This document shows, piece by piece, positions 13,566 through 39,058 of a stretch of 64,000 bases of DNA. This DNA comes from Fibrobacterota bacterium (lineage in GTDB: Bacteria; Fibrobacterota; Fibrobacteria; UBA11236). How positions within the stretch are numbered: position 1 is the first letter of the stretch; every line of letters starts with the position of its first letter. The notes under the pieces were generated by a model that was not told where the DNA came from, did no database searches, and worked only from the letters and a program-made list of their open reading frames with translations. The stretch spans positions 577,840 through 641,839 of the forward strand of contig CANKII010000001.1 of assembly GCA_947482115.1 (NCBI GenBank). The letters run 5' to 3'. Position numbers and translations under genes: made by a program.

Positions 13566-13613
13566 GAATAGTGTACGAAATTAGACCCGGCCTGTAAGGG
13601 CGACCCGGCGGGT
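13566..13613. repeat. REP-like GC-rich palindrome (ccggcctgtaagggcgaccc-ggc-gggtcgcccttacaggccgg), copy 1
   Basis: Read directly: ~20-bp perfect arms with a 3-nt centre. It lies between the carB stop and the start of the TPR gene. It shares the core GGGCGACCCGGCGGGTCGCCC with the palindrome at 20497. Confidence 0.7.
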
Positions 13614-13618
13614 CGCCC

Positions 13619-16600
13619 TTACAGGCCGGCGTGAAATTCCTGCAAGGAGCGGACTTCGAGTTCCCCGCGTTTCAGGGCGCGAATGGCTTCCAATGCCGCA
13701 CGTGCCGCAGACATGGTTGTCGTATAAGGAATCTGGGCAATGAGCGCAGCTTTACGAATCAAACCATCGTCTTCAATCGCAGCTTGTCCCAAAGGCGTGT
13801 TGATCAGCAAAGCGCATTCCTTGCTCTGAATCAAATCCACGATATGCGGAGAACCTTCGGAAACCTTGTTCAAGGCGCGACAGGAAATGTCGTGTTCACG
13901 CAACACCTTCGCCGTGCCTGAAGTCGCAAGCAATTCAAAGCCGAGTTCCTGTAAACCCTGCGCAATCGGGACAATATTTTTCTTATCGTGATTATTCACG
14001 GAGAGAAATACCTTCCCGTGACTGGGAAGGCTGTTCCCCGCTGCGATTTGCGCCTTGGCAAAGGCTCGTGAAAAATTCGAATCGATGCCCATCACCTCGC
14101 CGGTGGATTTCATCTCGGGGCTTAGCAAGGTATCGACACCGTGGAATTTTGCAAACGGGAATACGCTTTCCTTCACCGTGACATAATTGCCGATGCGGGC
14201 CTCGGTGAATCCCAATTCCTGCAAAGTTTTCCCGAGCATGGCCTTGGTCGCCAACTTGGTCAAAGGAACACCGAGTGTTTTGCTGACGAAAGGAACCGTG
14301 CGGCTGCCGCGTGGATTCACTTCCAGCACATAAACCACATCGTCCTTAATGGCATACTGGACATTCATCAATCCAATCACCTTAAGCTCTTTGGCCATGG
14401 CGATGGTTTGGCGGCGCATTTCTTCCAGTACCGATTCGGTAATGTCCTGCGGCGGCATGATGCAGGCGGAATCTCCGGAGTGAATACCGGCTTCTTCAAT
14501 GTGCTGCATGATTCCCGCCACCACTACGGTTTTCCCGTCGGAGATGGCGTCCACATCCACTTCCATCGCTTGATCGAGGAACTTGTCCACAAGCACAGGC
14601 CGCTCAGAAGAAGCCTCGACTGCAGTGGCCATGTAATGACGCAACTCGTCTTCAGAATACACGATAGCCATCGCACGTCCGCCAAGCACAAAAGAAGGAC
14701 GCAGTAAGACGGGATAGGTCAACCGGGCTGCAACGGCAACCGCTTCTTCGGTGTTCACAGCCAAACCATTGGGCGGTTGCTTGAGACCCAAACGATTGAC
14801 CAGTTCGGAGAACAACTTGCGATCTTCCGCGATGTCGATGGAAGAAGGCGAGGTTCCCAAAATGGGCGCATGAGCGGCCTCCAAAGCTTTCGCCAACTTC
14901 AACGGCGTTTGTCCGCCGAATTGCAGAATGACACCGTAGGGTTTTTCCAACTCGATGATGTTGAGAATATCTTCACGAGTCAACGGTTCGAAATAAAGTT
15001 TGTCCGAGGTATCGTAATCCGTACTTACCGTTTCGGGATTGGAGTTCACCATGATGGATTCGCAATCCTCTTCCTGTAATGCAAAGGACGCCTGACAACA
15101 GGCATAGTCGAACTCGATACCCTGACCGATGCGGTTCGGGCCACCACCAACGATGATCACCTTCTTGCGATTCGTAGGAACCGATTCATTTTCTTCATCG
15201 TACGTCGAATAATGATAAGGCGTGAACGCCTTGAACTCGGCGGCGCAGGTGTCGACCGTCTTGTACACCGGCATGATATTCAGCGCCTTGCGCTGTTGAC
15301 GCACATCCTCTTCCTTGGAACCGGATAAGTACGCCAGTTGCACGTCGGAATAGCCCCATTGCTTCGCTTTCCGCAAAGTTTCTTTGGGTAAAGATTTGAG
15401 CGACTTGCCCTTCAAGTCCGACGCTTCGAAACGAACCAGATCGAGAATGTGATTCAGGAACCACGGATCCATGCGGCACATGCCCTGAACCTTTTCCAGA
15501 CTCCAGCCCAATTCAAAGGCGCGCTTCACGGAGAAAACACGGTTGATGCCGGGATGTTTGAAGTCGAGATTCTTTTCGATTTGATCGTCGGGAATTTCTT
15601 TTTTCCCGTCGGCGCCCAAACCGTAGCGGTCGATTTCCAGCGAGCGCATGGCTTTCTGCAGGGACTCTTTGAAAGTGCGACCGATGGCCATGGCCTCGCC
15701 CACCGACTTCATCTGCGTGCCCAGAACCGATTCCGCCTGCGCAAACTTCTCGAAGGTAAAACGCGGAACCTTGGTCACGACATAATCGATGGTCGGTTCA
15801 AAACAGGCAGGCGTGACGCGGGTGATGTCGTTCTTCAATTCATCCAGCGTATAGCCAACCGCAAGTTTGGCGGCGATTTTGGCAATGGGAAAACCAGTAG
15901 CCTTGGACGCCAATGCCGAACTGCGCGACACACGCGGATTCATCTCAATGATGATCAAGCGGCCGTCTTTGGGATTCACGGCGAATTGCACGTTGGAACC
16001 GCCGGTCTCCACTCCGATTTCACGGATGCAGGCGATGGAGGCATCGCGCATGCGCTGGTATTCCTTGTCCGTCAGCGTTTGCGCCGGAGCCACGGTGATG
16101 GAATCACCGGTGTGAATGCCCATGGCGTCCACGTTTTCAATGGAACAGATGATGACGACATTGTCCTTGCGGTCGCGCATCACTTCCATCTCGAATTCTT
16201 TCCATCCCACCATCGATTCCTCGACGAGGATTTCGGAAATCGGACTCAATGACAAACCACTGCGCGCAATGCGTTCAAATTCTTCTTCGGAGTATGCAAA
16301 GCCTCCGCCTGCTCCACCCATGGTGAAAGCCGGACGGATGACCAACGGCAAACCGATTTCCTTCATGGCGATGCGCGCTTCGTCCATGGTTCGGGCGACA
16401 AAAGACCGCGCTGAATCAATGCCAATTTTCGTCATCGCATCTTTGAACAACTTGCGCGACTCGGCTTTTTTGATGGCTTCCAGATTCGCGCCGATCATTT
16501 CGACGCCGTACTTTTCCAGAATGCCGCGTTCGGCCAGTTCGACGGCCGTGTTCAATCCCGTTTGTCCGCCCAAAGTGGGCAACAAGGCATCGGGTCTTTC

Positions 16601-17490: not shown

Positions 17491-18513
17491 TTATGGGGAA
17501 GTAAAAATGACCCCGTCATAACCCACCGCGACAAGTTTTCCGGTCCCTGAGCCTGTCGAAGGGCTTGTCCCCGCGACGGAATACAAGACGGATTTGGCAG
17601 CCAACGAATCGTTTGTCCAATGGACGCCATCATCTGAAACCAAAACCGTTCCTTCATAACCCACCGCAATAAATCGTCTGTTGTTCCACGTAATCGAGTT
17701 CAAGACGCCAAACGATCCCCGGGAAGCCCAGGTTACACCGTCCGGAGAAGCCAAAATATCTCCGTTGTTGCTTACAGCAACCAGTTGACTTCCACTCCAT
17801 GCGAGGGAGGAAAGGGCATTCGTGATGCCGGAACTTTGTTCCATCCACGTCACGCCATCTTGTGAAGTGAGAACCGTACCGTAGTAGCCCACTGCAATCA
17901 TCCGCGTTCCACTCCATGCCACGGAATACAAGTCTTCACCCCCTAAAACACCGTCACTTCCACCGTGAACCGGATCCTGCCGTCCCAATACCGGAAGCCG
18001 TTCGGTCCATGTAATTGCATCGGGAGATGTTAGTATGATCCCATCCCAGCCCACTGCCACAAAGAGTCCGGTCCCTGAGCCTGTCGAAGGGCCGGTCCAA
18101 ATAACCGAGTTTAAAATTGCCGATACTCCAGAATTCCGCTCTGTCCACACCACGCCATTCGGCGATGTTAAAACAATGCCGCCAGACCCCACAGCCACTA
18201 ACTGTCCGGGCCCTGAGCCTGTCGAAGGGCCTGTCCAAATCACAGAGTTCAAGGGATTTTCAGTTCCCGAAATTTGCTTTGTCCAGGTTGCTCCATCGGA
18301 CGACGTCAGAATAATTCCACTCGAACCGACGGCCACCCATTGATGATCCGCCCAAGTCACCGAATTCAATGCCTCGGTTGTTCCCGAGACCTGTTGTGTC
18401 CAAGACTTTCCCAAATTCACATTTTCATCATTGCCGGTCGAAGTCCTCATGCAATTCCAGAGAAACATCGGAATGATCAAAAAGGCTCCAATAAAAAGAT
18501 TCTTATTGCGCAT
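17491..18513 (-). CDS. Secreted BNR/Asp-box repeat protein (Ycf48-like beta-propeller)
   Basis: Signal peptide. Six or more S-x-D-G-x-T-W BNR motifs (TSSDGATWT, TSPNGVVWT, TSQDGVTWM, ASPDGVTWA, VSDDGVHWT). Three copies of PSTGSG(T/P)G are encoded by the hairpin-element core. Confidence 0.65.
   Translation of the reverse strand: MRNKNLFIGAFLIIPMFLWNCMRTSTGNDENVNLGKSWTQQVSGTTEALNSVTWADHQWVAVGSSGIILTSSDGATWTKQISGTENPLNSVIWTGPSTGSGPGQLVAVGSGGIVLTSPNGVVWTERNSGVSAILNSVIWTGPSTGSGTGLFVAVGWDGIILTSPDAITWTERLPVLGRQDPVHGGSDGVLGGEDLYSVAWSGTRMIAVGYYGTVLTSQDGVTWMEQSSGITNALSSLAWSGSQLVAVSNNGDILASPDGVTWASRGSFGVLNSITWNNRRFIAVGYEGTVLVSDDGVHWTNDSLAAKSVLYSVAGTSPSTGSGTGKLVAVGYDGVIFTSP
17542..17563. repeat. Hairpin element, type-1 core copy B (GGTCCCTGAGCCTGTCGAAGGG), flanked by gacaag/cttgtc
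   Basis: Read directly; inside the BNR gene, where it encodes PSTGSGT. Confidence 0.7.
18070..18091. repeat. Hairpin element, type-1 core copy C
   Basis: Read directly; inside the BNR gene (PSTGSGTG). Confidence 0.7.
18208..18229. repeat. Hairpin element, type-1 core copy D (GGGCCCTGAGCCTGTCGAAGGG)
   Basis: Read directly; inside the BNR gene, 141 bp from copy C (one protein-repeat period). Confidence 0.7.
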
Positions 18514-20494
18514 GCATCCACTCCGCAGCCTTTGAGCGCATCTCCCGAATCAATTCCGAGTCTTCCAGTAAATCCACGAACCGGAGCAGCCCAAATCCAC
18601 TTTGCCGTGTCCCGTCCAGACTTCCCGCACCGCGACGTTGAAGGTCCATCTCGGCAATGCGGAAACCATCTTCGGTGGACGCAAACTCGCGCAAACGTTC
18701 TTCGGTTTCCTCCGGCCACCCGTTAAGCGGTGCCAACAGAAAGCACCAGGCTTGCGATTGACCACGACCCGTGCGACCGCGCAACTGATGCAATTGCGCC
18801 AGCCCAAATCGATCCGCACTTTCGACCACCATCAGGTTCGCTCCCGGCACATCCACACCTACTTCAATTACAGTCGTAGCCACCAACGCATGGATTTCGC
18901 CCTTGCGGAATGATGACAAAATGCGTTCACGTTCCTGTGATGGGATTCGTCCATGCACGGCTTCAACGCGCCATTTGCCAACATTTCGTAACCGTTTGAC
19001 GGCGGAATCAATTGCTGCAATGCTTTCCGTTTCGTTGTCCATTTTATTCCCCCCCTCAAGAGGGGGGGATAAAGGGGGGGTGATTCTGGGAACAACCCAA
19101 TAAACCTGATTTCCATTTTGGGTTTCCCGAAAAAGAAACTCCAGCATTTCCTTTTCTTTTTCCGCAGGAACGCGTCGGGTTTTTACCGGCAAACGCCCAG
19201 CAGGTTTTTCCGCCAACGTCAACACATCCAAATCGCCATACAATGATTGTGCCAGCGTGCGCGGAATTGGTGTAGCGGAGAGATACAACACATGCGGTTC
19301 AATACCTTTGGCGGACAATGCTGCACGTTGTTCCACACCGAAGCGATGTTGTTCATCGATCAACACCAGCCGCAATTCTTTGAACACCACGCCGGATGAC
19401 AACAGCGAATGCGTGCCGACCACGAAGGGCAAGCTCCCATCCTTCAGTTTTTCAAGAATGCGAGTCCTCTCATCTGCGGGTGTCGAAGCCGACAACAATG
19501 CGGATTCAAAACCCGCTGCTTTCAATACTGCGGCGGTGGAACGGAAATGTTGCTCCACGAGAATTTCCGTGGGTGCCAGCAACACGGCCTGCGCTCCTGC
19601 AGCCATTACACGGATCGCTGCCAGCAAGGCCACGGCTGTTTTTCCCGAACCCACATCGCCGTGCAACAGGCCAAAGAATTGGCCCTGCGTTTCCAATGCG
19701 GTGTGAATGGATTGCAACACTTCTTCCTGACCTTTGGTCAGCGAAAAAGGCAAAGCGGAATGCGCAGCTTGTTCTGTTTCGGGATGCGCAGTGAAGACCC
19801 GACCCCGGTTTAATCGTTCCCGTCGTGCAACTTCGCGCTTCAAACTTAGCGGCCACAACTCACGAACCTTTATTTCACTAAAAGCCGTAGCGACCAAGTC
19901 CAACGACGTAGGCGCATGCAGAATTTTCAACGCTTCAATTTCGGACCGCAGCTGAAGGAAATTTTTCTCGTCCGGTGAAAGCGGATCGGAAAAAGAAAAC
20001 TGCTCCAGTGTTTCCAAAGCCAGTCGCCGCACCAACTTGTGATCGATGCGAGCTTCTTCCATTTCCTCGGTCATGGGATAAACGGGGAGCATGCCGCCGC
20101 GAGGTTCCTGATCCTCGTCAAGCTCCTCCCATTCGGGATGCGCGATTTGAAAGTCGTGGAAATAGGTCACAGGCCCGGCAACAGAGATTCGCTTTCCGGG
20201 TCGCAGGCGCTGTTTGAGAAAGTGGAGGCCGCGAAAGAAAACCAGTTCAATGCCACCCGTTTCATCGCGAACATGAACGACAAGCCTTGTTCCGATGCTG
20301 TCAGCTGATTCGATATGCGCGGGGAAAAAAGCATCCATCCCCTCTTTCAGGGAATCAATGGGAGTAATGCGCGTGCGGTCTACATACCGGCGCGGCAGAT
20401 AATAAACGAGATCGCGTAATGTGAGGAGGCCTGAGGCTTCGAAAGCCTTCAGGCGTTTGGGACCAACCCCGGTTAAGCGGGATAATTCGGACAT
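18503..20494 (-). CDS. recG: ATP-dependent DNA helicase RecG
   Basis: 663 aa. Wedge/OB N-terminal region, Walker A (GDVGSGKT), DEQH box (LIDEQHRFGV) and helicase C domain. It contains an in-frame G/C homopolymer insertion. Confidence 0.85.
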   Translation of the reverse strand: MSELSRLTGVGPKRLKAFEASGLLTLRDLVYYLPRRYVDRTRITPIDSLKEGMDAFFPAHIESADSIGTRLVVHVRDETGGIELVFFRGLHFLKQRLRPGKRISVAGPVTYFHDFQIAHPEWEELDEDQEPRGGMLPVYPMTEEMEEARIDHKLVRRLALETLEQFSFSDPLSPDEKNFLQLRSEIEALKILHAPTSLDLVATAFSEIKVRELWPLSLKREVARRERLNRGRVFTAHPETEQAAHSALPFSLTKGQEEVLQSIHTALETQGQFFGLLHGDVGSGKTAVALLAAIRVMAAGAQAVLLAPTEILVEQHFRSTAAVLKAAGFESALLSASTPADERTRILEKLKDGSLPFVVGTHSLLSSGVVFKELRLVLIDEQHRFGVEQRAALSAKGIEPHVLYLSATPIPRTLAQSLYGDLDVLTLAEKPAGRLPVKTRRVPAEKEKEMLEFLFRETQNGNQVYWVVPRITPPLSPPLEGGNKMDNETESIAAIDSAVKRLRNVGKWRVEAVHGRIPSQERERILSSFRKGEIHALVATTVIEVGVDVPGANLMVVESADRFGLAQLHQLRGRTGRGQSQAWCFLLAPLNGWPEETEERLREFASTEDGFRIAEMDLQRRGAGSLDGTRQSGFGLLRFVDLLEDSELIREMRSKAAEWMHAQ
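19049..19080. repeat. Homopolymer-rich hairpin-forming tract C7-TCAAGA-G7-ATAAA-G7 inside recG
   Basis: Read directly: ccccccctc (19049..19057) is the exact reverse complement of gaggggggg (19060..19068). Encodes PPLSPPLEGG in RecG. Confidence 0.8.
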
Positions 20495-20496
20495 GG

Positions 20497-20535
20497 CCGG
20501 TAGGGGCGACCCGGCGGGTCGCCCCTACCGGCCCC
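20497..20535. repeat. REP-like GC-rich palindrome (ggccggtaggggcgaccc-ggc-gggtcgcccctaccggcc), copy 2
   Basis: Read directly: 18-bp perfect arms. It sits between the rplS stop and the recG start. It has the same core as the 13566 copy, with two compensatory arm differences. Confidence 0.75.
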
Positions 20536-34618: not shown

Positions 34619-34654
34619 CCCGTAGGGGGCGCATTTTTGTTACGCCCCTTACGG
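34619..34654. terminator. Bidirectional terminator-like hairpin (cccgtagggggcg - catttttgtta - cgccccttacgg)
   Basis: Read directly; between the convergent ilvE and adhesin-gene stops. 12-bp arms with one mismatch and a T-rich loop. Confidence 0.45.
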
Positions 34655-37600
34655 ACCGGCGTTAACCACACCAATCTTGATGACAGCCGTTGTATTGCCA
34701 CCGGGGTTTTGCGCGGTGACCGTATAGTTTGTTGCCGGGGAAATCACCGAGGGCGTCCCCTGTATGTAACCCGTGGTTCCATCAAAAGTGATTCCGGTTG
34801 GAAGTGCCGGTAAAATGGAGTAATTCGTCACGATGCCTTGAACGGTGGGAACATTGGGAGGACTGATGGCGATATTGCGGCCATACGTGGGAATATCATC
34901 GATGTATGAAAGCTCGGTGGGAACTCCAACGATGGTAATGTTGATGATGGCTTGTACAGAACCCAACGGGTTGCTCGCTGTCACCGTGTAATCCGTGGCA
35001 AAGGATTGGTGTGTCGTCGGAGTTCCCGTCAGAACACCTGTCAAACTGTCTATAACCAGGCCAGTGGGAGGCGCAGGACTGACGGAATAATGGGTGATGA
35101 AGCCGGTAATCGAGGGAGGATTCGGAGTAATGGCCAGACCAAGGACGTAGGCCGCCGCGTCATCCGCATAGGAGAAATTGGAAGGTATGGCAAATACCCC
35201 GATGTTCACCACCGCTGTATCCGAACCTCCGGAACCGGTTGCAATAACCGAGAAATCGGCAGACAAAGATTGCAGCGTCGGAGTCCCGGAGATGACGCCG
35301 GTAAGAGTGTCCAACGACAAACCGGGTGGGAGCGGGGAAATAAGTGCATAGTGGGTTACATCCCCCCCAGTTGAAATCACGGAATCCGGAGTAATGGCCG
35401 AATCCTTTATATAAGCTGCGGGATTGTGAACGTATGCGATCATGGGGGCTATGAGAACCTGTAAAACACCGGAATCGCTTGTTGCCACACCGGCAATGTT
35501 GGTCACCACGCACTTGTAATAGCCCGAATCCGAACCCTGAACATTGACGAGCGTCAGCGTATCGAGATTGCCAACGCTGTCCACTCCGTTCTTGAGCCAC
35601 TTGTAGAAGAGCGGAGCCGTACCCGATGCAGTCACTCCAAATTTCGCCGTGGCTCCCTGAACAAGAGTCTGACTTACAATGGGCTGGGTGACAATGGACG
35701 CAGGCACATTCAACGACAAGGTCACGCTGTTGCTGGTAGTATCGCCAAGGGGGTTTGTCACAATGACTTTATAGGAGCCGGTATCCGCAGCCTGCACGTT
35801 CACCAAAGTCAGAGTGTCCAATGTGCCGACAGTATCGGTGTTGTTCTTCAACCAGACATAGGTAAGAGTGTCCATGCCCACGGCCATCACACCAAACTTC
35901 ACTGTGGATCCGGCATTCACCATCTGGCTGGCGGGTTGCGAGAGAATCACAGGCGCCAGATTCACAGTCAAAACCCCCGAGTCACTCGTTGCCACACCGG
36001 CAATGTTGGTCACCACGCACTTGTAATAACCCGAGTCCGAACCCTGAACATTGACCAAGGTTAGTGTATCCAGATTTCCAACACTATCCACCCCGTTCTT
36101 GAGCCATTTGTAGGAGAACGGGGCCGTACCCGAAGCCATTACGCCAAATTTCACGGTCGCAGTTTCATTTGCCACCTGGCTGGCGGGCTGCGAGGTCACA
36201 CTGGGAGCCACGTTCAACGCGAGGGTCACGCTTACACTTGACGTATCCCCGGCCACGTTATGAATCAGCACTTTGTACGAACCCGTATCCGCAGCCTGAA
36301 CATTGACCAGCGTCAATGTATCCGAAGAACCCACGGTGTCCGTATTATTCTTCAGCCAGACATAAGTCAACGGAGCCGTGCCCGTCGCCACCACCCCAAA
36401 TGTCGCCGTGGAGCCCGAGTTCACCATCTGGCTGGCGGGTTGCGAAGTAATCACCGGGACAAATTGCACATGCAAGGTGCCCGAATTGCTTGGTGCCACA
36501 CCGGCAACATTGGTGACAAAGCACTGATACGAACCCGAATCCGAGCCTTGAACATTGATCAGAGTCAATGTATCCGAAGAACCCACACTATCGGCGCCGT
36601 TGTGAATCCACTTATACGACAACGGATTGGTGCCTGTAGCCCCGATGCCAAATTTCACCGTGGAACCGGAATTCACCGTTTGAGATACGACCGGCTGGGA
36701 GGTTAGGCTGGGCAATATGTTCAACCCAAGGTTCGCACTAACACTGGAGGTGTCGCCGGCAATATTATGAACGAATACCTGGTAAGAGCCCGTGTCCGAA
36801 GCCTGAAAATTCAATATCGTGAGCGTATCCGTGAAAGCCACCGTGTCCGTATTGTTCTTCAGCCAGACATAAGTCAACGGAGCGGTGCCCGTCGCCACCA
36901 CACCAAATTTCACCGTGGAGCCTGCATTGGCCATCTGACTGGATGTCTGCGAGAGGATCACAGGAAGATAATGCACCACCAACGATCCGGGATTGCTGGG
37001 CGCAACACCTGCGATATTATTGACAAAGCACTGGTACGAACCCGAATCCGAACCCTGAACATTGACAAGGGTCAATGTGTCCAAATTACCCACGCTGTCC
37101 ACCCCGTTCTTCACCCACTTGTAATGAAGCGGAGCCGTACCGGTTGCGATGACACCCAGTTTCACCGTCACACCCGAATTCACGGTTTGGCTGGTGACAG
37201 GCTGCGAAGAAATGTTGGGCGCCACGTTCAGTCCCAGAGTCACGCTGACACTGGAAGTGTCTCCGGCGATGTTATGAACGAACACCCTGTAGGAACCCGT
37301 GTCCGCAGCCTGAAAATTCAATATCGTGAGTGTATCGGTGAAAGCTACCGTGTCCGTATTGTTCTTCAGCCAGACATAAGTCAACGGAGTCGTGCCCGTC
37401 ACCACCACGCCGAATTTGACTGTCGATCCCGCATTGGCCATCTGGCTTGAAGACTGGGACGTAATCACAGGGAGCGCATGCACGATCAAAATGCTGGAAT
37501 CACTCGTGGCAATGCCGGCAACATTCGTGACAATGCATTTGTAAGTGCCTGAATCTGAAAGTTGAACATTCGACAGGGTCAGGGTGTCCTGATTGCCCAC

Positions 37601-39058
37601 GCTGTCCACGCCATTCTTGAGCCATTTACGATGGAGCGGAGCCGTGCCCACCGACACAATGCCAATCTTAACGGTTGTTCCCGTCAGTACGGTCTGTGTG
37701 ACAACCGGTTGCGAAAGAATACCGGAGGGGACATTCAAGCCCAAAGTCACACTGTCGCTTATCAGATCACCAAGGGAATTGTGTATGAACACCTGGTAAG
37801 TACCGACATCCGAGACCTGCGCATTGGGCAGGGTCAGTGTATCCGATGTACCCACGGTGTCTGTATTGTCCTTGAGCCAGGTGTAGGTCACCGGAGCCGT
37901 TCCTGTGGCCACAACCACAAATTGCGCCGTGTCTCCTGTGTTTACCATCAAACTCACCGGCTGCGAGGTGATTTCGGGTGGAGTATGCACGATCAACACC
38001 CCGGAGTCACTAGCCGCTACACCGGCAACGTTCGTGACCACGCACCGGTAATATCCAGAATCGGCACCCACCACACTGGCAATCACCAGCGTATCCTGAT
38101 TTCCAACGCTGTCCGCGTCATCTTTAGTCCAGACGTAATGGAGTGGACCCGTGCCTGTCGCTACTACACCGAATGTCACCGAAGAATCCGCATTCACGGT
38201 TTGAGTGACAACAGGCTGGGAAGTGATCAAAGGCGCCACATTCAAACCCAGAGTCACACTGGTACTCACTGTGTCCCCGGCCACGTTGTGTACCAGTACC
38301 TTGTAAGAACCCGTATCTACCGCCTGGACATTGGATAAAGTCAGGGTATCGAGCAATCCCACGGTATCCGTATTATTTTTCACCCACTGATACGTTAATG
38401 GCGCAGTACCGGTGGCCTGCACGCCAAATTTCACCGTCGAACCTGTATTGGCCATTTGACTCACAGGTTGGGAGCTAATCACCGGTGGTTTGTTCAGGGA
38501 TAATGCAGCGTTGCTGCTCGTCGTATCTCCGATGAGATTGCTCACAACAACCGAATAAAAACCCGTGTCGGATACCTGGACGTTGAACAAAGTAAGCGTG
38601 TCCGTATTCCCTACACTGTCTATATCATTAAAGAGCCATTTATACGTCAATGGAGCCGTACCCGCAGCGACCACGCCAAATTTCACCGTCGAACCCGCAT
38701 TCACCATTTGGCTCATGGGATCGGAGACAATGGACGGCCTTTCATTCACTGTAATGTTTATCGTGTCCGTGGTGGAGCCGGAATCATTACTGGCCGTGAC
38801 CACGTAATCCGTGGCAACCGATGCCGATTCGGGAGCTCCTGAAATGACTCCGCTGACGGAATCCAGCACCAAGCCCGCAGGCAGGGCTGGCGCTACCGAG
38901 TAAAGAAAGACAGTATCCGTTACCGTGGGAGTGTCAGGTGTAATCGGCAAATTTACGGTGTAAACAACCGGGGTCGTGTAAGTGAGATCGGAGGGGGACT
39001 CAAATGCAAAGCTCGAAACAGCGAGCATCAAGAGGGCTGGCAAACCTATCTTTTTCAT
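34649..39058 (-). CDS. Giant secreted surface protein of ~13 tandem Ig-like (I-set-like, GxYxC) domains, with putative-Ig/cadherin-like domains at both ends
   Basis: 1469 aa. Signal peptide MKKIGLPALLMLAVSSFA. An ~90-aa repeating unit alternates between two subtypes (...TYVWLKNNTDTV...DTGSYKV... and ...HYKWVKNGVDSVGN...DSGSYQC...). Several units are near-identical at both protein and DNA level. Confidence 0.7.
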   Translation of the reverse strand: MKKIGLPALLMLAVSSFAFESPSDLTYTTPVVYTVNLPITPDTPTVTDTVFLYSVAPALPAGLVLDSVSGVISGAPESASVATDYVVTASNDSGSTTDTINITVNERPSIVSDPMSQMVNAGSTVKFGVVAAGTAPLTYKWLFNDIDSVGNTDTLTLFNVQVSDTGFYSVVVSNLIGDTTSSNAALSLNKPPVISSQPVSQMANTGSTVKFGVQATGTAPLTYQWVKNNTDTVGLLDTLTLSNVQAVDTGSYKVLVHNVAGDTVSTSVTLGLNVAPLITSQPVVTQTVNADSSVTFGVVATGTGPLHYVWTKDDADSVGNQDTLVIASVVGADSGYYRCVVTNVAGVAASDSGVLIVHTPPEITSQPVSLMVNTGDTAQFVVVATGTAPVTYTWLKDNTDTVGTSDTLTLPNAQVSDVGTYQVFIHNSLGDLISDSVTLGLNVPSGILSQPVVTQTVLTGTTVKIGIVSVGTAPLHRKWLKNGVDSVGNQDTLTLSNVQLSDSGTYKCIVTNVAGIATSDSSILIVHALPVITSQSSSQMANAGSTVKFGVVVTGTTPLTYVWLKNNTDTVAFTDTLTILNFQAADTGSYRVFVHNIAGDTSSVSVTLGLNVAPNISSQPVTSQTVNSGVTVKLGVIATGTAPLHYKWVKNGVDSVGNLDTLTLVNVQGSDSGSYQCFVNNIAGVAPSNPGSLVVHYLPVILSQTSSQMANAGSTVKFGVVATGTAPLTYVWLKNNTDTVAFTDTLTILNFQASDTGSYQVFVHNIAGDTSSVSANLGLNILPSLTSQPVVSQTVNSGSTVKFGIGATGTNPLSYKWIHNGADSVGSSDTLTLINVQGSDSGSYQCFVTNVAGVAPSNSGTLHVQFVPVITSQPASQMVNSGSTATFGVVATGTAPLTYVWLKNNTDTVGSSDTLTLVNVQAADTGSYKVLIHNVAGDTSSVSVTLALNVAPSVTSQPASQVANETATVKFGVMASGTAPFSYKWLKNGVDSVGNLDTLTLVNVQGSDSGYYKCVVTNIAGVATSDSGVLTVNLAPVILSQPASQMVNAGSTVKFGVMAVGMDTLTYVWLKNNTDTVGTLDTLTLVNVQAADTGSYKVIVTNPLGDTTSNSVTLSLNVPASIVTQPIVSQTLVQGATAKFGVTASGTAPLFYKWLKNGVDSVGNLDTLTLVNVQGSDSGYYKCVVTNIAGVATSDSGVLQVLIAPMIAYVHNPAAYIKDSAITPDSVISTGGDVTHYALISPLPPGLSLDTLTGVISGTPTLQSLSADFSVIATGSGGSDTAVVNIGVFAIPSNFSYADDAAAYVLGLAITPNPPSITGFITHYSVSPAPPTGLVIDSLTGVLTGTPTTHQSFATDYTVTASNPLGSVQAIINITIVGVPTELSYIDDIPTYGRNIAISPPNVPTVQGIVTNYSILPALPTGITFDGTTGYIQGTPSVISPATNYTVTAQNPGGNTTAVIKIGVVNAGP

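Follow-up and report, generated by a model that had tools for sequence, protein, structure and literature searches.

The window, as we call the whole stretch of DNA analysed here, comprises 64,000 nt (64 kb) of contig CANKII010000001.1 from a Fibrobacterota bacterium. On its minus strand, the coding sequence at 18503..20494 specifies a RecG protein of 663 residues, identified as an open reading frame (ORF) with full-length matches to RecG structures in the PDB, and recG is the last gene of the series rimM-trmD-rplS-recG, an order that relatives keep. Our subject is a short cassette of C and G runs arranged around a palindrome, which is inserted in frame in this gene. A first-pass annotation of the DNA had described three 7-base runs and a 9-bp perfect inverted repeat in frame in recG. 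Both are present, and the peptide that was given for them, TPPLSPPLEGGNK, is exact.

Sequence of the cassette

On the plus strand the tract reads CATTTTATT-CCCCCCC-TCAAGA-GGGGGGG-ATAAA-GGGGGGG-TGATT, with homopolymers C7 at 19049-19055, G7 at 19062-19068 and G7 at 19074-19080, the spacers being TCAAGA and then ATAAA. The arms of the inverted repeat, CCCCCCCTC (19049-19057) and GAGGGGGGG (19060-19068), are perfect over 9 bp, or 10 bp including the flanking T/A pair, and enclose a 2-nt loop, AA. Read on the coding strand, the sequence is ATC ACC CCC CCT TTA TCC CCC CCT CTT GAG GGG GGG AAT AAA ATG, which encodes I471-TPPLSPPLEGGNK-M485 in the recG frame. The first coding-strand C7 (plus-strand G7, 19074..19080, minus strand) contributes an in-frame heptamer C CCC CCT. 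The second C7 (19062-19068) and the G7 (19049-19055) are both held within the core hairpin, TCCCCCCCTC-TT-GAGGGGGGGA, which has 10-bp arms and a 2-nt loop and spans 19048..19069 as a perfect inverted repeat of 10. A TGA in the -1 frame (19056..19058, minus strand) straddles the boundary of loop and 3' arm, taking one base from the loop (its second) and two from the start of the arm.

The part shared among lineages extends further. Codon-level comparison with four relatives (L112, L113, L005 and L118; see below) delimits a whole cassette at 19040..19087 on the minus strand, from R470 to M485, of the form AGA ATC A-C7-TTTAT-C7TC-TT-GAG7-AATAAA-ATG. Its AGA (19085..19087, minus strand) encodes the invariant Arg470 of the VVPRI motif. 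The net insertion within it is 33 nt long (19049..19081, minus strand; codons T472-G482, TPPLSPPLEGG), as defined against the insert-free closest relative in an alignment of 120 homologues and by the HMMER gap against structure 1gm5. It consists of two 12-nt tandem units, ACCCCCCCTTTA and TCCCCCCCTCTT, which are identical at 9/12 positions, followed by GAG GGG GGG.

The tract stands out from its surroundings. Only four runs of at least seven G or C are found in the window, and three of them lie inside the 32 nt of the recG tract. The first-pass annotation had raised the matter of such runs in other ORFs, and within the window there is one more: a C7 at 35362-35368 in a 1469-aa ORF (34649-39058, minus strand), with no palindrome there. 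Dinucleotide shuffles predict 0.01 occurrences of the 20-mer palindrome, and the 64-kb window contains no second pair of C5+ and G5+ runs closer than 15 nt. The plus strand also has the potential to form a G-quadruplex, judging from the pattern G3-N1-G3-N5-G3-N1-G3; this pattern is not conserved where the runs are G6.

Position in RecG

ORF residues 4-656 align with the RecG structures 1gm5 and 9wm0 (from T. maritima and E. coli; E = 4e-104 and 1e-102, respectively). The precomputed Pfam domains of the 663-aa product are RecG_wedge, DEAD, Helicase_C and RecG_dom3_C, so that the full-length RecG architecture of wedge, superfamily 2 (SF2) motor and C-terminal domain 3/TRG region is present. All top NCBIfam matches are RecG models, and their equivalog cut-offs are not reached (NF008168, 636.7 bits against a cut-off of 718; TIGR00643, 554.6 against 659.4). 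The nearest named RecG homologues, at ~51% identity, come from metagenome-assembled genomes (MAGs) of Fibrobacteria/Fibrobacterota. By sequence, we take the 663-aa protein to be a divergent clade member of RecG. A scan of JGI metagenomes with back-translated patterns returned only RecGs at 34-43% identity, as the patterns were too general.

Relative to T. maritima RecG, HMMER opens a gap of 8 residues (TPPLSPPL), and relative to E. coli RecG one of ~12 residues. The closest relative that we found (P0002, 82% identity) has no insert. These gaps and the insert-free relative bear out the proposal that the tract is an insertion with respect to canonical RecG. Its site had been placed in the linker between helicase domains 1 and 2, which is imprecise: it is a loop inside the C-terminal RecA-like lobe. 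The insert follows the first β-strand of that lobe, VYWVV (463-467), which we take to be SF2 motif IV, and precedes a helix at 485-505. About 30 residues downstream of the insert lies an HGR segment. This segment aligns with R622/K628 of T. maritima RecG, assigned to motif IVa (PMC6213257).

An AlphaFold2 model, built from an alignment of 28 homologues, has a mean predicted local distance difference test (pLDDT) score of 83. Residues 471-488 (19031..19084, minus strand), predicted to form a disordered surface loop, score <50 and have no secondary structure. In the alignment of the 120 best RecG homologues, all members of the close clade have VVPR(I) followed by 0 to ~60 additional amino acids, among which Pro, Ala, Ser, Gly and acidic residues abound, and more distant RecGs have the canonical PLIEESE and no insert. 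A short form such as IDAEGNEADA is common to several widely separated lineages. On this alignment, the insertion site is an indel hot spot across the Fibrobacterota-like clade; the loop that carries the cassette is disordered in the model and tolerates indels.

Invariance within the species

Among ENA, NCBI and Logan assemblies, 24 contigs (26 index blocks) encode the identical 663-aa protein. At the DNA level, four loci taken from four ENA analyses match the window over 1992 nt, bar one synonymous single-nucleotide polymorphism (SNP) in L002. This SNP, at window position 19061 (gene nt 1434, CCT->CCG), is the sole polymorphic position in recG among the four loci of the species, and it breaks one base pair of the hairpin. 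Being a single case in a hairpin arm (n = 1), it may reflect chance, a mutational hot spot or a homopolymer-adjacent sequencing error. In the cluster at 90% identity, the 663-aa form is joined by a single other one, of 611 aa, which begins at another start. Among 5.8 billion clusters searched for homologues, none yielded a truncated allele with near-100% identity. We detected no tract-length or frameshift allele in the 24 contigs or in a 15-billion-protein collection; these are consensus sequences, which leave room for low-frequency variants within populations. A fragment running from M485 to the end of the protein is not on record as a product.

In silico, adding one nucleotide to either C run brings in the TGA on the boundary between the loop and the 3' arm and yields a product of 479 aa. 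One extra nucleotide in the G run gives 483 aa, and loss of one nucleotide gives 541 aa. All of these products (479-541 aa) lack the HGR (motif IVa) segment, motifs V-VI and the TRG region, and we infer that a change of one nucleotide in the tract would abolish RecG function. Compensating +1/-1 pairs of runs keep the ORF open in 4/6 combinations, altering only 3-8 residues. That no frameshift is seen, even though it would be destructive, argues against an artefact and lends no support to a contingency locus. The frequent on/off variation proposed for recG thus finds no backing in a protein that is the same on 24 contigs, in four loci with equal tracts, and in the lack of truncated alleles. An assembly artefact, offered by the annotation as the alternative, is very unlikely, given that separate assemblies are identical and that relatives have homologous cassettes. 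RecG would stay full length and presumably active.

The cassette in related lineages

The annotation had pointed to related strains as a test of tract stability. As just described, tract lengths are invariant within the species; among diverged lineages they differ. We compared the recG DNA of the window with that of nine other lineages, whose RecGs are 63-78% identical to each other and 67-70% identical to the window protein. Third positions of conserved four-fold codons are saturated, their identity to those of the window being only 0.35-0.41. On the coding strand, the window has AGA ATC A-C7-TTTAT-C7TC-TT-GAG7 at the site, L112 (P0011) has AGA ATT GA-C6-TTCA-C6TC-AGA-GAG6, L113 (P0012) has AGA ATT A-C6-TCGAT-CCCGCCTC-GGG-GAG6, L005 (P0005) has AGA ATT A-C5 ... 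CCCTCCCCT-TC-AGGGGAGGG, and L118 (P0022) has AGG ATC ... C6 ... C7-GAA-G7. L116 (P0069) has a G7 alone, and the cassette is absent from L006, L114, L115 and L117. A hairpin of a C run and a G run is thus found at the site in five diverged lineages, with RecG identities of 63-69%, and the full architecture of the window in three. A perfect inverted repeat of 8-10 bp is kept in the window, L005 and L112, in genes that have one or two inverted repeats of at least 8 each. The codon phase of the hairpin differs, GAG GGG GGG in the window corresponding to (GA)G AGG GGG G in L112, and the run lengths change from 7/7/7 to 6/6/6 with the net length still in frame.

Gain or loss is seen in the pair L113 and L117 (P0012 and P0026), which are 91% identical in protein and in DNA; a clean 39-nt indel at this point sets them apart. 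Its boundaries show no repeats other than ATT...ATC and GAT, and the preceding Arg codon is AGA in one and CGC in the other. In an approximate neighbour-joining tree, cassette bearers occur in both major sub-clades, each beside insert-free sisters; this distribution implies either several gains or a single old one followed by many losses. The same DNA architecture therefore recurs at the same place in diverged lineages and is missing from close relatives.

One relative at 70% identity, L116 (2001-3979), has recG split by a frameshift into ORFs of 436 aa and 223 aa. The frameshift is located at an A5C4G3 stretch, ~30 codons before the insertion site. To judge by its name, the contig comes from a polished nanopore assembly, and the frameshift is probably a homopolymer error.

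Codon choice, folding and a linked arginine codon

To assess codon choice, the observed peptide was resampled synonymously with the codon usage of the window (38 ORFs, 17,645 codons). An inverted repeat of at least 10 arose with P = 0.0004, and three runs of at least 7 with P = 0.00015. These values rule out the complementarity of Pro and Gly codons, together with codon usage, as the full cause of the palindrome. In the window, GGG makes up 15% of Gly codons and CCG 36% of Pro codons. By hand count, the cassettes of the window, L005, L112 and L113 use GGG for 6/7 Gly codons and CCG for 0/15 Pro codons. It is the DNA architecture rather than the peptide that is the special feature, and codon usage cannot explain it.

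A rare Arg codon accompanies the insert. The Arg of VVPRI is encoded by AGA (five) or AGG (two) in 7/7 lineages with a Pro-rich insert (the window, L005, L112, L113, L116, L118 and L006) and by CGC or CGG in 3/3 lineages without one. AGA accounts for 0-6% of Arg codons in the compared recG genes. The recG genes of the window, L112 and L113 have 58-68 Arg codons (58 in the window), and none but that of VVPRI is AGA.

As single-stranded DNA, the whole cassette is predicted to fold into a 13-bp bulged stem that includes TTTAT/ATAAA (-10.9 kcal/mol), and the core hairpin by itself reaches -10.7 kcal/mol. For RNA, a 66-nt stretch has a minimum free energy (MFE) of -22.6 kcal/mol and a centroid energy of -16.9 kcal/mol. 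Folding z-scores against dinucleotide shuffles are weak (-0.05 to -1.3), with L005 at -2.9. Searches for terminator-like, promoter-like or Rfam matches at the tract returned none, and we rejected an intrinsic terminator, a promoter and a known RNA family on these grounds. The window has two in-phase copies of the heptamer C CCC CCT and L112 has one, 3-4 nt ahead of the hairpin; the heptamer is absent from L113 and L005. The -1 frame stop is inside the hairpin in the window and ~21 codons downstream in L112, and the frame stays open for >160 codons in L113. With both heptamer and -1 stop unconserved, a defined programmed -1 frameshift product is unlikely. An internal translation start at GAGGGGGGGAATAAAATG, which combines a Shine-Dalgarno-like sequence with an ATG, was discarded as a conserved trait: it is absent from L112, L113 and L005, and the M485-to-end product is unrecorded.

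Occurrence outside recG

No second hairpin with the architecture of the recG cassette exists in the 64-kb window or outside recG in 40 kb of clade loci, which excludes an abundant repeat family of the genome as far as these sequences extend. One extra match in the clade loci, a G-run-first hairpin 3' of recG in L112, is likely a terminator. Beyond the clade, scanning 185,579 species genomes with CCCCCCCNCTTGAGGGGGGG gave 24 loci in unrelated phyla, in a set that does not contain the species of the window. About 10 of these 24 share the layout of the window, with another C7-8 or G7-8 run at a distance of 2-6 nt. Several of the hairpins lie in frame in genes: atpG (L016), a CCG-domain Fe-S protein (L022), an alpha/beta hydrolase (L021), a phosphoribosyltransferase (L013) and an alpha-2-macroglobulin (L027). 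C7TC-WW-GAG7 hairpins of other phyla encode (S/T)PP(L/Q/S)(E/R)GG. The hydrolase copy reads TPPYSPPQEGG and equals the window cassette at 29/33 nt. As the cross-phylum matches were chosen by the search pattern, the similarity of their flanks is partly selection bias, and we treat them as a lead only.

Two genomes contain more than one such hairpin. A Sericytochromatia MAG has four C6-7TCT(T/A)GAG7 hairpins within 1.7 kb (L009 3525-5181), and a 3.5-Mb 'Spirochaetaceae' MAG (OZ245363.1; L018, L020, L023 and L025) has at least 4 dispersed copies of C9TTGAG9 whose flanks are alike. In both cases a repeat family is built on the same hairpin kind. The 294 kb of control loci were free of such hairpins. 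Among 2.9 million viral contigs there was 1 match, a frequency that led us to reject a phage association.

Neighbouring features

The recG stop overlaps by 11 nt (18503-18513) with the start of a downstream 340-aa ORF (17491-18513), which has many repeated ...WT...G...S motifs and no Pfam match on record. The window also contains GTAG-containing, GC-rich palindromes that resemble repetitive extragenic palindromic (REP) sequences, of the form GGCCGGTAGGGGCGACCCG-C-CGGGTCGCCCCTACCGGCC, at 20495-20533 and 13572-13644. One, with perfect 19-nt arms, sits precisely in the interval that separates the stop of rplS from the start of recG; the other shares sequence with the 3' end of carB. Their appearance suggests an intercistronic REP/terminator family in this genome.

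Discussion

We lean, with modest confidence, towards the following interpretation: the tract is a genuine, fixed, single-copy palindromic cassette of C and G runs (33-48 nt), which is carried as a passenger peptide in a permissive loop, owes its unusual DNA form to mutational dynamics more than to selection on the protein, and does not act as an on/off switch in present populations. That it is fixed and real follows from the 24 contigs, the four near-identical loci and the lack of length variants. The site can be called permissive because pLDDT is <50 at residues 471-488 and inserts of 0 to ~60 aa occur at the same column. The cassette would be translated as a Pro/Gly-rich passenger peptide. 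Replication slippage would duplicate and resize the runs, as the 12-nt tandem units and the compensated run-length changes suggest, and would be tolerated only when compensated so as to hold the frame. Quasipalindrome template switching is an established mutational route (PMC7202029), and switching templated by the hairpin may maintain the complementarity of the arms. Deletion promoted by the hairpin could then strip the cassette from some lineages.

Several observations weigh against this interpretation. The AGA/AGG codon is tightly linked to the insert, which the slippage model does not explain, and a simple slipped deletion or insertion would not yield the AGA versus CGC difference between L113 and L117. 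Pure neutrality does not obviously predict that runs of 6-7 nt and a perfect hairpin survive at saturated divergence, and the scheme relies on a presumed 'mutational attractor' step. The near-identical 33-nt layout in unrelated genes of other phyla (L021) hints at a common element or process. Since the persistent pure runs and the AGR (AGA/AGG) linkage fit the model imperfectly, we have kept alive two rivals, a selected cis-acting element and a small palindromic repeat.

We first consider the two readings that the first-pass annotation had put forward. In a contingency locus, slipped-strand mispairing in the C7/C7/G7 runs would switch recG and thereby modulate recombination and mutation rates. 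Three 7-base runs in one ORF are at the lower limit that defines phase-variable polyG/C loci in Campylobacter jejuni (PMC4965091), an uncompensated change of 1 nt would truncate RecG to 479-541 aa, and after a +1 change the sequence TGA-GGGGGGG-AATAAA-ATG would present a stop, a Shine-Dalgarno-like element and a start, from which a split two-cistron RecG is conceivable. However, no length or frameshift allele turned up in the 24 contigs or the 15-billion-protein collection, the C-terminal fragment from M485 is not recorded as a product, and the Shine-Dalgarno/ATG arrangement is not conserved in L112, L113 and L005. The tracts are located at 71% of a housekeeping gene, not at the 5' end of a surface or restriction-modification gene, and the high switching rates measured in C. 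jejuni concern G8-G11, with a modal tract of 9 (PMC3401435). We therefore regard a contingency locus as highly improbable. The probability of an assembly or sequencing artefact is close to nil: homopolymers are error hot spots, and L116 does have a frameshift elsewhere in recG, but the same in-frame sequence is present in four ENA analyses, NCBI and Logan, and such identical independent assemblies, together with homologous cassettes in other lineages, weigh heavily against it.

A selected cis-acting element is a more serious rival, if still an unlikely one. It would combine the AGR codon with Pro-Pro runs and a GC-rich hairpin, in mRNA or DNA, into a device that tunes RecG synthesis by pausing or attenuation, in translation or in transcription; possibly, full-length RecG would depend on elongation factor P (EF-P) or on m1G37-modified tRNAPro, recG being directly downstream of trmD-rplS. 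Such selection would account for runs and hairpin being kept at the DNA level despite saturated synonymous sites and in different codon phases, for a codon bias towards CCC/CCT and GGG against genome usage, and for the linkage of AGR to the cassette; the strong predicted RNA hairpin of the 66-nt stretch and the trmD-rplS-recG order, which is conserved in the clade, are consistent with it. Yet close relatives manage without a cassette (P0002, P0026, P0013 and others), a natural SNP disrupts a stem pair, the folding z-scores are weak except in L005, and the tract has no Rfam, terminator or promoter match; a defined programmed-frameshift product is unlikely with the -1 stop unconserved and C CCC CCT missing in L113 and L005. 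Somewhat less probable again is an ultra-small palindromic repeat of which the cassette would be a copy or relic in a tolerant loop, akin to REPs, miniature inverted-repeat transposable elements (MITEs) or Rickettsia palindromic elements (RPEs), and either inherited and repeatedly lost or inserted repeatedly. The filled and empty sites in a 91%-identical pair are what such a repeat would leave behind. The layout of C run, T-rich spacer and C7TC-NN-GAG7 occurs in frame in genes of other phyla, the hairpins are multi-copy in the Sericytochromatia and 'Spirochaetaceae' MAGs and number 0 in the 294 kb of controls, and in-frame palindromic elements are known (RPEs; Ogata et al. 2000, reviewed in PMC3184786). 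Set against this, the 64-kb window has one copy and the 40 kb of clade DNA has none of this architecture outside recG, the L113/L117 indel shows no clear target-site duplication or terminal inverted repeats, and the evident REP family of the window is a different, GTAG-tagged palindrome. The cross-phylum matches were selected by pattern, with flank similarity that is partly bias, and they amount to only 24 in 185,579 genomes and 1 in 2.9 million viral contigs. A bolder joint proposal would be that the cassette is no passive low-complexity loop and either gates RecG translation, possibly through a coupling to EF-P or to TrmD-dependent tRNAPro in the trmD-rplS-recG operon, or belongs to an undescribed cross-phylum class of ~33-nt insertions. 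Members of that class, whichever way round they are inserted, would spread through loops of essential genes and invariably encode (S/T)PP(L/Q)EGG. We find this proposal doubtful.

Three 7-nt runs of G/C in a repair gene resemble a mutator switch, and the comparative data, which argue otherwise, guard against over-calling phase variation from the sequence by itself. What seems to be inherited is the shape of the DNA (runs, hairpin and rare codon) rather than the peptide, and across deep lineages this shape comes and goes at a single exact position in an essential-type helicase. If selected, the cassette would be a compact translational or structural control element within a coding region. If self-maintaining, as in the passenger interpretation that we favour, it would offer a clean natural case of slippage and template switching shaping protein loops. 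If a micro-repeat, it would extend in-frame selfish DNA of the Rickettsia type to elements ~3-4x smaller and to several phyla.

Among known systems, the contingency loci of C. jejuni (PMC3401435, PMC4965091) are like the recG tract in having G/C runs of 7 in an ORF and frameshifts that truncate the product. The recG tract differs in that it lacks length polymorphism, is located in a housekeeping gene and not near the 5' end, and comprises three mutually compensating runs. By the features that define such loci, the runs reach the length of at least 7 and a one-unit change truncates the protein in silico, and polymorphism in length was not found. Quasipalindrome template switching (PMC7202029) would keep the arms complementary, and the arms of the cassette are perfect in three lineages of differing sequence; here the process is invoked from a comparative pattern. 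GTAG-tagged REPs (PMC3733652) are, like the cassette, short GC-rich hairpins, whereas the cassette is intragenic, has no GTAG tag, has homopolymer arms and is single-copy in the DNA examined.

Closer parallels are provided by lineage-specific insertions in surface loops ('signature indels'). Like the cassette, these are in-frame, lie in a disordered loop, vary among relatives and are absent from the canonical protein. The cassette departs from them in conserving a DNA architecture (C runs, G run, hairpin and AGR) and not a peptide, and this architecture persists through saturated synonymous divergence and in different codon phases. RPEs are present in many dispersed copies per genome. They resemble the cassette as in-frame hairpin palindromes in housekeeping genes, with filled and empty sites, and are about 105-146 bp long (PMC3184786). 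At 33-48 nt the recG cassette is shorter, and a single copy was seen in ~100 kb of clade DNA; of the features that mark a palindromic element, the in-frame hairpin with filled and empty sites is there, and multiple dispersed copies are lacking in the DNA examined. In its workings, the cassette comes closest to a lineage-specific loop indel that is at once an in-frame palindromic element of the RPE type.

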